A DNA stretch of 22,996 nucleotides from a virus (Duplodnaviria > Heunggongvirae > Uroviricota > Caudoviricetes), in IMG/VR virus record IMGVR_UViG_2698536401_000001. One strand, written 5' to 3'. Each line of letters opens with the position of its first letter. Position 1 is the stretch's first letter. Under the pieces are notes generated by a model. That model was not told the DNA's origin and ran no database searches. It was given only the letters and a program-made list of their open reading frames with translations. Both the position numbers and the translations under genes were made by a program. Of this stretch, positions 2,891-6,910 are shown piece after piece.

Positions 2891-3243
2891 TACGCCTCCG
2901 ATGTAACAGTCGTTATTCCATAAAGAGTGTCGATTTCAGCGGAAAACATGACACGTCGGGTCGTGGTATCCACCGTCGTATTGAAAGAGAGGATTGATTT
3001 AACGCCCCGCGTTTCGAGGATGCGCTTACGGATCGCCAGGTTGTAGGTTTCCGGCTTCTGCTTACCGAGTACGGACTGGATCCACGGAGTCCCCTCAGTG
3101 GTGTCGAGAAACCATTGCCCATACCACAATTCGAATCGCGTTTTTACCGCCTGCGCCACGGCCTCCGGTGAGTTAATCAGCCAGGTGTCATCACCGCTGC
3201 CAAAGGTGTAATCGCCAACGGCGTCTTCACGTCTGTATCGCAT
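2890..3243 (-). CDS. baseplate assembly protein (gpW/gp25-like)
   Basis: 117 aa ORF between the spike and baseplate J genes, the canonical position of the small gpW/gp25-like wedge protein. Confidence 0.45.
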   Translation of the reverse strand: MRYRREDAVGDYTFGSGDDTWLINSPEAVAQAVKTRFELWYGQWFLDTTEGTPWIQSVLGKQKPETYNLAIRKRILETRGVKSILSFNTTVDTTTRRVMFSAEIDTLYGITTVTSEA

Positions 3244-3998
3244 CAGTTAGGCGCTCCTGTGTTACCGCCGCCGGTCTGTACTCCGCCGTGCGTGTGCGTC
3301 ATCAGGCTCTTACCACCAGCTTTTACATCGTTAGTCACCGTGACAGGGCCAAGCATCGTCGCGGTGCCGCCGCTTTCGCCCATCCCCTGAGAAAGATTCC
3401 CGTTTATTGTCACGTTGCCGTTTAGCGTGATGGTGGGTGATGTGATCGTGGTTCCTCCTTCTGCTGTCGCCGTCAGCGCGCCGGGGGTTTGAACCGTGAT
3501 GTTATGGCCTGCGGCCACTTCCACAAACGCAGCGCCATCATCAGTACGCAGTTGCGCGGCGCTGGTGCTGATTCCGCTGATTTTCTGCGCCTGCGACTGG
3601 GGACCTACAATACAAAACGCATCCGATAAATCATGCATTCTGTCATCAACAGGCTCCTGTATTCCGCCGTTCTGCCACCAGAAATCAATACAACGATCGG
3701 CAAAAATCACCAAACATTCATCACCGGCTTTAACCGGGAACGTTAGCGTGCATCCTCCGCCGCGCGGGAATACCACTGGCACATCCACCAGCAGCGGGTA
3801 ATTTTTGGTAACGCGATTGCCGTCGTTATCCGTTTCAACCGAACGGATAGAAGGCTGCACAACCGCCGTCACAGCGTCAGGATCGAATGACTGGACGATG
3901 CCAGGCAAAGCGACTCGGATCTGGTTCTTTGTTGTTTCCCGTTCAGATTTGAATGTTTCAGCAAGGTCGCCGCTGCGGGTCTGGTCAGATACTGCCAT
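3243..3998 (-). CDS. baseplate central spike protein (gpV / Mu gp45-like)
   Basis: 251 aa with Gly/Thr-rich repetitive C-terminal half (TITSPTITLNGNVTINGN...THTHGGVQTGGG) typical of spike proteins. ATG at 3996-3998 preceded by GGAG. Confidence 0.55.
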   Translation of the reverse strand: MAVSDQTRSGDLAETFKSERETTKNQIRVALPGIVQSFDPDAVTAVVQPSIRSVETDNDGNRVTKNYPLLVDVPVVFPRGGGCTLTFPVKAGDECLVIFADRCIDFWWQNGGIQEPVDDRMHDLSDAFCIVGPQSQAQKISGISTSAAQLRTDDGAAFVEVAAGHNITVQTPGALTATAEGGTTITSPTITLNGNVTINGNLSQGMGESGGTATMLGPVTVTNDVKAGGKSLMTHTHGGVQTGGGNTGAPN

Positions 3999-4010
3999 TT
4001 AGTAGGCTCC

Positions 4011-4043
4011 AGAAAGCAAAAAACCCGCCGGGTGGCGGGTTTA
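4011..4043 (-). terminator. rho-independent terminator closing the inserted cassette
   Basis: Minus-strand transcript reads UAA-ACCCGCC-ACCC-GGCGGGU-UUUUUUGCUUUCU: a 7 bp GC-rich stem (plus 4023-4029 with 4034-4040), 4 nt loop, then a U-run. It overlaps the stop codon of the 4041..4457 gene. Confidence 0.6.
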
Positions 4044-4457
4044 TGAATCGTAGGTTTTCAATTTTTCGAGTTCATCAGGAGGAAGTTCTATGAAGGTTTC
4101 CTCTGCTAATTTTATCAGCCGGGGAAGCATCGAATCAGCTTGCTGATGAGCGTTTGGGCTGATGATTGCCAATATCTGATAGTGTTCATCGATATAAAGA
4201 TGCTGAGCATATACCAAAAAATTATCACATGTCCGTTCACTCAGAGATGCTTCTGGAGGCCAGGGTTTATCGCCAGGTAGCTTTAAGTGAATTTTCCTGA
4301 TGTTGGCAGCCATCGCATCATAGTTACGTTCAAAACCGCCTAACGAACCAAAACACCAGAACTGGGAACCCTTTGAAATATAATCGGCAAGCATTTGAGC
4401 ATACTTATGTGCTGCAGCTAAATGACGCAATTCTCCCGTGATACTGACTTTTGCCAT
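4041..4457 (-). CDS. YafO-family toxin-like protein (putative ribosome-dependent mRNA interferase)
   Basis: 138 aa. Segment IRKIHLKLPGDKPWPPEASLSERTCDNFLVYAQHLYIDEHYQILAIISPNAHQQ...LIKLAEETF aligns by eye to the E. coli YafO core as I remember it (IHL, P-PP, S-RT-D, LVY-Q, DE, LAI, P-H, AE-F). ATG lies 1 nt after the upstream gene's stop. AT-rich relative to flanking genes. Confidence 0.55.
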   Translation of the reverse strand: MAKVSITGELRHLAAAHKYAQMLADYISKGSQFWCFGSLGGFERNYDAMAANIRKIHLKLPGDKPWPPEASLSERTCDNFLVYAQHLYIDEHYQILAIISPNAHQQADSMLPRLIKLAEETFIELPPDELEKLKTYDS

Positions 4458-4458
4458 G

Positions 4459-5031
4459 TCACATCCATTTAGGGGCGTCGGCTCCCAGCATCTTATGCGA
4501 TGTTGAGATCAGTTCAATCGCCTCTTCACGGGTAACATTATCTGACAAGAGTTCAGCCTGGAAAGGCTGCGATTGCCTAACTTCAGCGGCCAACTGAGTT
4601 GCAGTGTTCTCGACGGCGGTCAACGCACGAACATATTTGCGTTTTAATGGGCGCAACATTTGCAGATGGCCTTGCCACATAGGGGACCTTTCCGCTTCAG
4701 AGAACATATCCACTAAATGTCCTTTAGCATTTCGGCATGCCTTGGCAAGACCTTCGAGATGGGATAAAAACCCTTCCGGAAGCTCATCAACAATGATTCT
4801 TCCATTTCGAAAAGCTTCGAGATGAGACATGCCTTCCTTCGCGGTATTTTCGATTTCTTGAGCGCGTGCAGCAATCGCGGTACAACGACGAAATGCCTCT
4901 TCAGCATCTAATCGTTGTGGCAGTTCACAAGCATTAGAGATCAGGGGTTTGAAAGCACCGTTAACAGCTTCCTGAACCTGATTCATTTGTTGTGTAATTG
5001 TTGCCAGCGCAAATGCGTAGCTAATCGCCAT
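4459..5031 (-). CDS. hypothetical protein, upstream partner of the YafO-like gene (candidate antitoxin/regulator)
   Basis: The track ORF begins at a TTG (5037). The first in-frame ATG is 5029-5031, preceded by AGAGGGA 7 nt upstream, giving about 190 aa. Stop TGA is separated by 1 nt from the downstream ATG. No family recognised from the sequence. Confidence 0.5.
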   Translation of the reverse strand: MAISYAFALATITQQMNQVQEAVNGAFKPLISNACELPQRLDAEEAFRRCTAIAARAQEIENTAKEGMSHLEAFRNGRIIVDELPEGFLSHLEGLAKACRNAKGHLVDMFSEAERSPMWQGHLQMLRPLKRKYVRALTAVENTATQLAAEVRQSQPFQAELLSDNVTREEAIELISTSHKMLGADAPKWM

Positions 5032-5037
5032 ACCCAA

Positions 5038-5199
5038 TCCCTCTGTCGTTTTAAACGACTATACACCACTTATTCAAAGTTAGCTGAGCGCTAAAAGTTC
5101 GCAAAGTTTAGTGATCATGCAACCACCTAGCAAGCGATAAAAAATCATTATTTAGTGAATGTGAACAAACTCAACACTATGCAGAAATGTAACTTTTGG
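5038..5199 (-). promoter_or_regulatory. AT-rich intergenic region, putative promoter for the two-gene cassette
   Basis: 162 bp non-coding AT-rich spacer inside an otherwise tightly packed operon, directly upstream of the cassette. Contains a TATAGT -10-like hexamer and TTGCTA/TTGCAT -35-like hexamers on the minus strand. Exact promoter not resolved. Confidence 0.3.
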
Positions 5200-5541
5200 T
5201 TAACCAGAAACCTTTTTACACGGGAAAGAGCCGATGATTTTCGGCGCATCCATGCTGTTCTGCAGCAGTTGGACGTTCAGGAAGCGCGTTTCGGTACCCG
5301 GACGACGAATGTATTCAAAGCCGTAGTTGTTGCCGTCTTTGGCAGGCATTAGCCCCATATCAATCTTAATGCCATCAGCACCAAGATTTGTAATTTTCTG
5401 AGATGTGACGCGTTCACCGTTAATCATGTCCATTTCCCCCAACCTTGCAGTGATGGTGTAAGGTCCACAATAAGCGGTGTAACCGCTTGCAGATGCCCCA
5501 AATGACATAAAGGCAACAATTAAAATGGCTAAGGCTTTCAC
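5200..5541 (-). CDS. small Sec-exported protein with N-terminal signal peptide (moron candidate)
   Basis: 113 aa. N-terminus MKALAILIVAFMSFGASA|SGY is a classic signal peptide with an A-S-A cleavage site. Two Cys in the mature part. The start is a GTG preceded by GGGGGT, 2 nt after the hub gene stop. Confidence 0.5.
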   Translation of the reverse strand: MKALAILIVAFMSFGASASGYTAYCGPYTITARLGEMDMINGERVTSQKITNLGADGIKIDMGLMPAKDGNNYGFEYIRRPGTETRFLNVQLLQNSMDAPKIIGSFPCKKVSG

Positions 5542-5543
5542 AT

Positions 5544-6605
5544 TTACCCCCGGTTAAGCGAGTCCTGAGTGCGGAGATCCGCCGCGCCACGCGCTTCGCA
5601 CATCATATCCATGTACCACGCCAGGCCCCTTGTATCGCCAGTGTACATAATCCCGCGCACAATATAAACGCCATCCGTTGCGATGCTGGCAGGCTGCGAT
5701 GTGGTGCCGCTTAGCGTGATATTTCCATCCGTGTTCTGGTCGGTGATCTGACCACCAGCCATCGCAATATCGTTGTTCGACAAGGCGGTACGATACACGG
5801 AAGCCTGATCCAGCTGAATGAGTCCGTTAACCCGGATGTTCGGATTAATAAGCGCGCGGACGTTTACGCCGTTACCGATAGTCTGCTGCGGCATGCCAAT
5901 AAGCCCGGTAGCGCTGTTGAGCACAATCGCTTCATGAACATATTCGTTATTCTCCACCATCTGGCGTTGACCGTCCACGAATTGCCATGTTGCGCCACAT
6001 TGACCGGCTACGTTATCCATAAGATGCCGCGTCATGCCAAAGAGTACCCGCCCCCGGGGGAATACAGTAGCAGGCATTTCAGGCGTCAGGCCTTCGGTCG
6101 CGCCTTTGGCTTCGAAGTCTTTCATCAGCGCACGGTTCACATCAGCGACCGTGTAACCGGCAGCCAGCGTCTGTGAGGTTATACTGGTGGCAAAAGCCAG
6201 ATCAGTATCTGCTGCCTGAATCAGGACGTAGGTATCAACCGGACTGTCTTTTCCTGTGACCGAGTAGCGAATTTCACCGCTGAAAATCAGTCCGTAGTTG
6301 CGGCCATCTCTCTGGCCCACGTCCGCCGCGTCAACTTCCCGCACGGTCCCTACGTCGCTTGCTGACACCTCTGGCGCGACACCGTCGTAACCGGCAATCA
6401 GACGCACTTTCGAAAATTCCTGCCCGGTGATTCGGTTCACAGTATCTGCCGAGAGGTTATAAATTTTGATAGTCCCTACCCGGGACGCGCTGCTGATGTT
6501 GAACCAGTCGATCGTAAAGGTGACTTTGAAATCACTTAGCTCAATTCCCTGACCGTTCCCGTCCACAAGCTGCAGCTCGAAATGTCTCATCCAGTTCTGT
6601 GACAT
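5544..6605 (-). CDS. baseplate hub protein (P2 gpD / Mu P-like)
   Basis: 353 aa ORF at the hub position, downstream of the tape measure and two small tail genes. Call is from size and synteny. Confidence 0.45.
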   Translation of the reverse strand: MSQNWMRHFELQLVDGNGQGIELSDFKVTFTIDWFNISSASRVGTIKIYNLSADTVNRITGQEFSKVRLIAGYDGVAPEVSASDVGTVREVDAADVGQRDGRNYGLIFSGEIRYSVTGKDSPVDTYVLIQAADTDLAFATSITSQTLAAGYTVADVNRALMKDFEAKGATEGLTPEMPATVFPRGRVLFGMTRHLMDNVAGQCGATWQFVDGQRQMVENNEYVHEAIVLNSATGLIGMPQQTIGNGVNVRALINPNIRVNGLIQLDQASVYRTALSNNDIAMAGGQITDQNTDGNITLSGTTSQPASIATDGVYIVRGIMYTGDTRGLAWYMDMMCEARGAADLRTQDSLNRG

Positions 6606-6607
6606 GC

Positions 6608-6910
6608 TTACTCCGTTGATACCAGTAAATGACTGAGGCCGCCCAGATCAGTTTTCGTGGGATAATCCTGTGTGTTGTCATCGCAGACCACCACCAGCTT
6701 AAAACCAAGTCCCATACAGGCGTACTGCGCCAGCAGATCAGCGCCAGTGACGAGAGGAATACCGGAGATTACCGGCTCCCCTCTGTCGTTCTGCAGGTCC
6801 ATAATCCAGTAAGGATCGCGCCATATGATGCTAATCTGCCAAGTGACACCACCCAAGACGATGCTGAACTGCTGGTTGTCCGCTGTCAGCGGAATTTCCT
6901 GAATTGTCAT
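6608..6910 (-). CDS. tail/baseplate assembly protein
   Basis: 100 aa ORF tightly packed between tail genes. Call is from position only. Confidence 0.35.
   Translation of the reverse strand: MTIQEIPLTADNQQFSIVLGGVTWQISIIWRDPYWIMDLQNDRGEPVISGIPLVTGADLLAQYACMGLGFKLVVVCDDNTQDYPTKTDLGGLSHLLVSTE

Follow-up and report, generated by a model that had tools for sequence, protein, structure and literature searches.

In the temperate phage recorded as IMGVR_UViG_2698536401_000001 in IMG/VR, whose late region is covered by the 22,996 nucleotides (nt) analysed here (the window), a predicted Rho-independent terminator lies directly against the ribosome-binding site of the central baseplate spike gene, where it probably forms the fixed downstream border of a slot for accessory genes ('cargo') between the baseplate hub and spike genes. 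We hypothesize that it stops cargo transcripts in the lysogen and is read through by Q-modified RNA polymerase during late transcription, and we put the probability of this reading as a whole at roughly 70%.

The phages that carry the element would be temperate SEN34-like (Brunovirus-type) myoviruses whose regulation is of the lambda type. In the lysogen their late operon would be silent, transcripts initiated at cargo promoters would end at the hairpin, and the spike, wedge and tail-fibre genes would stay off; were the hairpin missing, transcripts of the toxin-antitoxin genes found in the window would be expected to run on into the spike and baseplate genes. Upon induction, RNA polymerase modified by a Q-type protein would arrive from a late promoter upstream of the lysis genes, ~19 kb away, ignore the hairpin and enter the spike gene, which has its ribosome-binding site immediately 3' of the uridine run (U-tract) of the terminator. 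This distance of ~19 kb does not exceed the span of the lambda late operon. As an example of a known design, in which a terminator that silences virion genes in the lysogen is overridden by antiterminated polymerase, the case is clean and comparatively well supported, and it opens no new question about transcription. In practice the element is useful for locating a cargo hotspot, which lies between the conserved hub gene and the terminator with the spike start; prophages with this hotspot are found in ~6% of complete Escherichia coli genomes, and the hotspot also occurs in Salmonella, Klebsiella and Yersinia phages.

Anatomy and conservation of the terminator

Judged by its letters, the element is a canonical Rho-independent (intrinsic) terminator adjoining the ribosome-binding site of the spike gene, with termination itself predicted from the structure. 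The 42-nt gap between the stop codon of the upstream toxin gene and the spike start codon reads AAACCCGCC-ACCC-GGCGGGTTT-TTTGCTTTCT-GGAG-CCTACTAA-ATG and holds a stem of 9 base pairs (bp) with a 4-nt loop and a 6-bp core made up wholly of guanine-cytosine (GC) pairs (CCCGCC/GGCGGG). The foot of the hairpin and the toxin stop codon overlap, and the first three T of the U-tract are able to pair with the A-tract of the stem. Folding of the minus-strand hairpin gave -15.6 to -17.8 kcal/mol, and compared with shuffled sequences its 81-nt context scored z = -2.64. The initial annotation had set an intrinsic terminator directly against the spike ribosome-binding site at 3996-4043, an interval that runs exactly from stop codon to start codon, and anatomy, fold and conservation all agree with that placement.

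A pattern scan of the window ranks this hairpin first (9 pairs, 6 of them GC), although the scan overall is not clearly above chance, with 18 sites vs 10.4 +/- 4.1 in shuffles. The 16-nt palindrome occurs once in the window where 0.03 occurrences are expected, and across all 23 kb of the window the sense strand has no second intergenic hairpin with a T-run that is more stable than -9 kcal/mol. An Rfam scan of positions 3700-5600 returned no family, its one sub-threshold chance match being to the terminator part of a Pseudomonas small RNA. The real proof of the element is comparative, because it occurs at the same place in all related loci that could be compared and its stem carries compensatory changes.

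Relatives were sampled as 80 IMG/VR loci with spike proteins 73-100% identical to that of the window, 76 of which hold both hub and spike genes; counted among the close relatives are Salmonella phage SEN34, of the genus Brunovirus, a number of vB_EcoM coliphages and Yersinia phage YP3. A GC hairpin with a run of five to eight T was found 17-26 nt ahead of the spike ATG in 76 of the 76. Its stem exists in 11 variants among these loci, several of them compensatory, and pairing is kept in the variant stems of divergent relatives (CTCGCC/GGCGAG, CCCAGT/GCTGGG, CCAGC/GCTGG, CCCTC/GAGGG and GGTCGC/GCGGCC). Across an alignment of 31 sequences, five T and the GG.G of the Shine-Dalgarno sequence are invariant. 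From a plain MAFFT alignment RNAalifold predicted five pairs, four of them with double-sided changes; MAFFT placed several divergent hairpins one column out of register, and per-sequence calls anchored on the T-run and an alignment fitted to a covariance model were added. The model-fitted alignment leans towards the structure; in it 99.3% of cells pair and all five pairs covary. These values were not attained in any of 500 shuffles, and pairing in slid controls on the same alignment drops to 23-54%.

The relatives become similar to the window from the hairpin foot onwards. Among 5426 complete E. coli genomes, 321 have a match to the hub-spike segment (3200-6700), and coverage is 80% or more in only 34, because its middle part differs. 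A 103-nt query that begins at the hairpin foot matches 301 of the 5426, with at least 80% coverage in 266, as against 37 E. coli genomes that carry the toxin-antitoxin cassette of the window (the YafO cassette, after its toxin family). A 34-nt block is 97-100% identical even where the 5' end of the spike gene is too diverged for blastn to extend the match. Isolated 34-nt matches in E. coli were considered as copies of the element in other contexts and rejected, since they lie in the same slot, beside a diverged spike 5' end. The window, SEN34 and the prophage of E. coli EC17CM13 each have a single copy of the element.

Table 1. Features at and around the terminator, listed from the spike gene towards the hub gene; aa, amino acids; RBS, ribosome-binding site
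Feature	Coordinates	Strand	Details
Central baseplate spike gene	3243..3998	-	251 aa; N-terminal spike domain PF18352 (6.6e-44), GpV apex motif PF18946 (5.9e-08)
Shine-Dalgarno GGAG of spike gene	4007..4010	-	Directly 3' of U-tract; 8-nt spacer to ATG 3998-3996
U-tract TTTTTTGCTTTCT	4011..4023	-	TTTTTT 4023-4018, then GCTTTCT to 4011
Predicted terminator hairpin	4021..4042	-	5' arm AAACCCGCC 4042-4034, loop ACCC 4033-4030, 3' arm GGCGGGTTT 4029-4021
Toxin stop codon TAA	4043-4041	-	Read from the letters
YafO-family toxin gene	4041..4457	-	138 aa; PF13957 (4e-17), PGAP name; GC 0.42; final cargo gene
Putative antitoxin gene, partner reading frame upstream of toxin	4459..5037	-	192 aa from TTG 5037 or 190 aa from ATG 5031; phrog_35514 (7.9e-93)
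AT-rich cassette leader	5038..5199	-	162 nt; promoter-like TTGAGT-16-AATAAT (5174-5147); inverted repeat GTCGTTT(a)AAACGAC (5059-5045) just 5' of RBS
113-aa signal-peptide protein gene	5200..5541	-	phrog_3443 (2.4e-46), no Pfam match; begins 2 nt past hub stop
Baseplate hub gene, left border of slot	5544..6605	-	353 aa; phrog_196 (1.3e-87); PF22759 sub-threshold (24.0 bits, cut-off 27 bits)

The cargo slot between hub and spike

As far as comparison of the relatives can tell, the terminator is a backbone element, the fixed right border of the slot in SEN34-like lambdoid myoviruses, and is not part of the YafO cassette that happens to precede it in the window. It is assigned to the slot because about 45 contents share it and because it is kept where cargo is lacking. 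The hub-spike interval of the relatives has 50 distinct contents of 0 to 2.8 kb, about 45 with cargo and five with essentially none. The minimal occupied slot consists of hub gene, 113-aa gene, terminator and spike gene (loci L025 and L034 of our sample), and in three independent metagenomic contigs (L061, L064 and L065) hub stop and spike ATG are joined by a 64-nt spacer that includes the terminator. Most simply, we infer, the cargo-less forms are secondary losses. The terminator is present in the same arrangement in Klebsiella phage ST11-OXA48phi15.1, which has other cargo. We did not find the terminator to behave as a unit brought in with cargo: an identical CCCGCC/GGCGGG stem follows 31 different cargo types, and the element stands alone in the cargo-less loci. 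In Acinetobacter phage AbTJ, whose spike is 46% identical, hub stop and spike ATG are two bases apart and there is no terminator between them, and in the virulent phage FelixO1 the hub and spike genes overlap and the terminator is absent at the junction. The terminator is specific to the lineage with the cargo slot, so that a cargo-linked origin and role are favoured.

The genes within the slot are present, absent or different among relatives while their neighbours are conserved, and their base composition deviates, with a GC content of 0.42-0.48 in the cargo reading frames vs 0.545-0.553 in hub and spike. Cargo reading frames are mostly co-oriented with the late genes (90, vs 12 opposed), and the logic of insulation therefore extends to most cargo types.

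In the window the cargo next to the terminator is a putative toxin-antitoxin cassette (Table 1). Type II toxin-antitoxin pairs require continuous transcription from their own promoter. As such a pair, with low GC and an AT-rich leader, the cassette would need its own promoter; the inverted repeat in the leader is operator-like. PGAP starts the partner reading frame at ATG 5031, and the frame ends 1 nt ahead of the toxin ATG. Neither Pfam nor PADLOC gave a match for the partner protein, which at 190-192 aa is roughly double the size of a classical YafN antitoxin. It had been suggested from the letters that the terminator shields the tail genes from cassette transcription during lysogeny. Such insulation fits a low-GC toxin-antitoxin cassette with a 162-nt AT-rich leader, presumably expressed in the lysogen; the terminator itself, as a backbone element, is not a piece of that cassette. 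Of the 37 E. coli genomes with the YafO cassette, 36 have it at 99% identity or more, while the hub and spike genes on either side differ by 2-8%, which suggests a recent spread between related prophages.

Homologues of the 113-aa protein occupy the first slot position in 39 of about 45 slot types. They are 27-100% identical where the hub is 47-100% identical, and in one locus (L006) the hub is 96.6% and this protein 59.8% identical. Slots that lack a homologue have another secreted protein or a lipoprotein instead (L009, L011, L024). The protein looks, from these comparisons, like a fast-evolving envelope protein.

A second recurrent feature is a two-gene module, in which a gene for 243-272 aa is followed by an overlapping or abutting one for 126-154 aa; it is the last cargo before the terminator in ~11 cargo types (L007, L011, L015, L016, L033, L035, L048, L052, L079 and probably L041 and L058). 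The large protein belongs to four unrelated families, four representatives of which have no Pfam match, two of these being also without a PADLOC match. The module may be an unrecognised toxin-antitoxin or defence pair.

A Pfam scan of 30 cargo representatives left most without a match, and a scan of 10 slot proteins (3 from the window and 7 cargo representatives) with PADLOC 2023 gave nothing convincing, the single marginal hit being to BrxF (E = 1.9e-4). Since most of the ~45 cargo sets are assigned by neither Pfam nor PADLOC, the slot is a source of candidate genes for lysogenic conversion, toxin-antitoxin systems and defence.

Late transcription and rival explanations

Only ~45 nt are conserved 5' of the spike ATG, and hairpin, U-tract and ribosome-binding site fill all of it; upstream of that lies unrelated cargo. 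With the block fully used there is no room for a conserved spike promoter, and a pattern scan found no promoter-like site in the ~45 nt ahead of the gene (promoter-like matches in the window are rarer than in shuffles). Transcription of the spike, wedge and fibre genes must therefore arrive from upstream across the terminator, as the initial annotation had argued. That annotation also called for a Q-like antiterminator. Q genes upstream of the lysis cassette speak for it in all three relatives examined (SEN34, the EC17CM13 prophage and the E2348/69 prophage); for the phage of the window itself the gene falls outside the sequence and read-through is a prediction. SEN34 has a Q-like gene ahead of holin (PF03589, E = 1e-50), the EC17CM13 prophage (96.5% identical over the hub-spike region) has Q (PF03589, E = 1e-57), and in the E2348/69 prophage, which is 99.9% identical to window positions 19000-22979, a gene annotated as Q lies upstream of the same holin. 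The Q genes are 624, 519 and 798 nt long, and in E2348/69 tRNA and HNH genes are inserted. In the Q-holin spacer of the EC17CM13 prophage (L085), TTGACT-17-TAAATT is followed ~35 nt downstream by a terminator with a 13-bp stem, a pR'/tR'-like arrangement that consists of pattern matches only. Polymerase loaded with Q is termination-resistant, as Q narrows the RNA exit channel and blocks formation of the terminator hairpin (PMC9388147, PMC6606751).

The match of the window to its best E. coli relatives stops at 22979, 17 nt short of the window end and 5 nt upstream of the holin ATG, at a mosaic joint that agrees with the differing Q types and Q-holin spacers of the relatives. The EC17CM13 prophage also has a second hairpin with T-run on the minus strand at 38194-38220, after a small hypothetical gene in the interval from the lysis genes to the small terminase gene, which would be another internal terminator of a late operon.

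Several observations weigh against the reading as a border that insulates the late genes from cargo transcripts and is crossed with the help of Q. The window, which ends ~20 nt upstream of the holin start, contains neither a Q gene nor a late promoter. The promoter-like site in the cassette leader matches the consensus at 9 of 12 positions, and such matches are below chance in the region. The cargo-less loci L061, L064 and L065 retain the terminator where there is no cargo transcript to stop; there it may have a cargo-independent role, or it may be a remnant. Finally, a very similar terminator-RBS unit in AbTJ follows cargo on the opposite strand, where insulation from cargo transcripts is impossible as its reason. 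The sense strand of the AbTJ late region (L090) carries four units of hairpin and T-run (19158-19189, 29895-29943, 35238-35289 and 38039-38066), with GGAG and a start codon clearly following in two of them. The unit at 29895, after two opposite-strand cargo genes, is close to the enterobacterial element and reads AAACCCACC-ACTT-GGTGGG-TTTTTT-ATTGCCCGGAG. We considered the covariance-model match in AbTJ (46 bits) as a sign of a mobile terminator-RBS unit and rejected it: a CCCGCC-type stem with U-run and GGAG is generic, and the likeness may be convergence and not homology.

Retention without cargo and the similar terminator-RBS units ahead of other AbTJ late genes would both be explained if the hairpin were a dosage attenuator, a partial stop in lytic growth that keeps transcription of the spike, wedge and fibre genes below that of the upstream genes whatever the cargo; partial termination is listed among the possible roles of intra-operon terminators, whose 'roles are not known', in the genome paper of phage L (bioRxiv 10.1101/2020.10.05.325894). 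We consider this unlikely. Q-loaded polymerase is expected to be insensitive to intrinsic terminators (PMC9388147, PMC6606751), and the hairpin, by its fold energy and its run of six U, is strong and not leaky. In distant phages with the same baseplate module the hub and spike genes abut or overlap without a terminator, so the module needs no attenuation at this point. Hub and spike are both low-copy parts of contractile-tail baseplates, and a step down in expression between them would have no obvious purpose. Conservation of stem structure and not of stem sequence, together with stable tetraloops such as UUCG in 12 loci, could reflect RNA stability or processing, with the hairpin mainly protecting the 3' end of the upstream cargo mRNA or of a cleaved hub mRNA. 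That account is decidedly improbable: the invariant T-run right after the stem is a hallmark of termination that a stabilising hairpin does not need, and we found no evidence of a processing site.

The position of the element has to be weighed as well. The boundary between conserved and variable sequence falls at the hairpin foot in more than 30 cargo types, the 34-nt block is near-identical beside diverged spike 5' ends, and the YafO cassette is nearly uniform between more variable flanks, all of which would suit a block whose selected function is to be a linker for cargo exchange, like the promoter/stem-loop cassettes of T4-type phages. A repeated mobile regulatory cassette of the T4 type, in several near-identical copies, is ruled out by the single copy per genome, which also makes recombination between copies within a genome impossible. 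For exchange between phages the adjacent hub and spike genes already give long homology, and the compensatory drift of the stem suggests that selection acts on pairing in the RNA and not on identity of the DNA. Selection as a recombination border is thus very improbable. A promoter of its own for the spike and downstream genes, which would make read-through unneeded, is more improbable still; an outward-facing promoter at the 3' end of each cargo is formally possible, and we found nothing in support of it. The conserved nucleotides are taken up by hairpin, T-run and ribosome-binding site, the sequence upstream of them differs fully between cargo types, and no promoter-like site was found there.

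With insulation of the late genes as the preferred function of the terminator, one extension can be put forward as a speculation that we hold to be doubtful: hairpin, U-tract and ribosome-binding site might have evolved as a self-contained 'insulated docking border' that is selected even in an empty slot. Were this true, promoter-bearing gene sets could be inserted without expression of tail genes in the lysogen and without uncoupling spike translation, which would give a reason for the presence here of ~45 mostly uncharacterised cargo sets, including the recurrent two-gene modules that are possible toxin-antitoxin or anti-phage genes. The cargo-less relatives allow a direct test of whether intra-operon late terminators have a role of their own, a question left open in the phage L genome paper (bioRxiv 10.1101/2020.10.05.325894).

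Comparable systems and other genes of the window

Our search of the literature found no description of this slot or its terminator for SEN34-like phages, and the genome paper of SEN34 mentions neither terminators nor this region. The closest described case appears to be the 'ant moron' (immI region) of P22-like phages, between gene 16 and the tailspike gene 9. This variable region lies immediately 5' to the gene for the tailspike, has to be crossed by polymerase from the late promoter, and exists in 10 types in 16 genomes, being absent in some (PMC2629481). In both systems a variable accessory region sits in a Q-type late operon (the P22 protein is gp23), directly 5' of a tail-tip gene, and in some relatives of the window the hub-spike slot is occupied by genes resembling P22 Ant, together with a small divergent gene. 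Four slots (L055, L059, L063 and L069) have such P22 antirepressor-like genes (P22_AR_N/C, Bro-N) with the small opposite-strand gene ahead of them, and in L059, L063 and L069 a protein of 250-270 aa follows. The two systems differ in that the gene behind the P22 region encodes a podovirus tailspike and the one here a myovirus baseplate spike, with flanking genes that are not homologous, and in that one terminator-RBS block is conserved here in every relative examined, whatever the cargo.

A moron, as defined by Juhala and Hendrix, is an extra gene in a late operon with its own promoter and factor-independent terminator, thought to be expressed from the prophage; HK97 gp15 and lambda lom and bor are examples. 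The slot resembles the morons of lambdoid phages (PMC2629481, PMC10884400) in having extra genes between conserved late genes, deviating base composition, a leader that may hold a promoter of its own, and a terminator. However, a classical moron brings its own terminator, whereas here the terminator belongs to the slot. The hotspots for defence and accessory genes in P2-like phages and P4-like satellites (Rousset et al. 2022, as presented in PMC10884400) are, in that account, likewise fixed positions between conserved genes with highly variable cargo; they belong to another phage family and another position, the present slot being inside the tail gene cluster, and a defence role here is unproven. 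In Tn916 a terminator acts as an insulator that is overridden by antitermination (PMC11658703). As proposed here, it prevents untimely expression of the element at rest and is overridden on activation, but Tn916 is a Gram-positive conjugative element with another antitermination mechanism and no homology to the phage.

The late region is transcribed from the minus strand. Structural genes are all on that strand, with few gaps; the order of the region is lysis genes, terminase, head, sheath, tube, tape-measure and baseplate, with the tail-fibre genes last, near coordinate 300. A lambda-type lysis cassette (holin, GH24 endolysin and Rz/Rz1-like genes) at 21652-22974 stands at the head of one long co-oriented operon; its gene names are those given by PGAP in a 99.9% identical relative. 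The spike protein is labelled 'membrane-puncturing spike protein' by PGAP in relatives. Between the small terminase and spanin genes there is an 866-nt stretch (20786-21651) with no convincing minus-strand gene. At the equivalent position the 99.9% identical E2348/69 prophage has an annotated opposite-strand gene of 549 nt, which would be a reverse-oriented accessory gene within the late operon; the content of this position differs in other relatives, and in EC17CM13, for example, it is a gene for a KilA-N protein.

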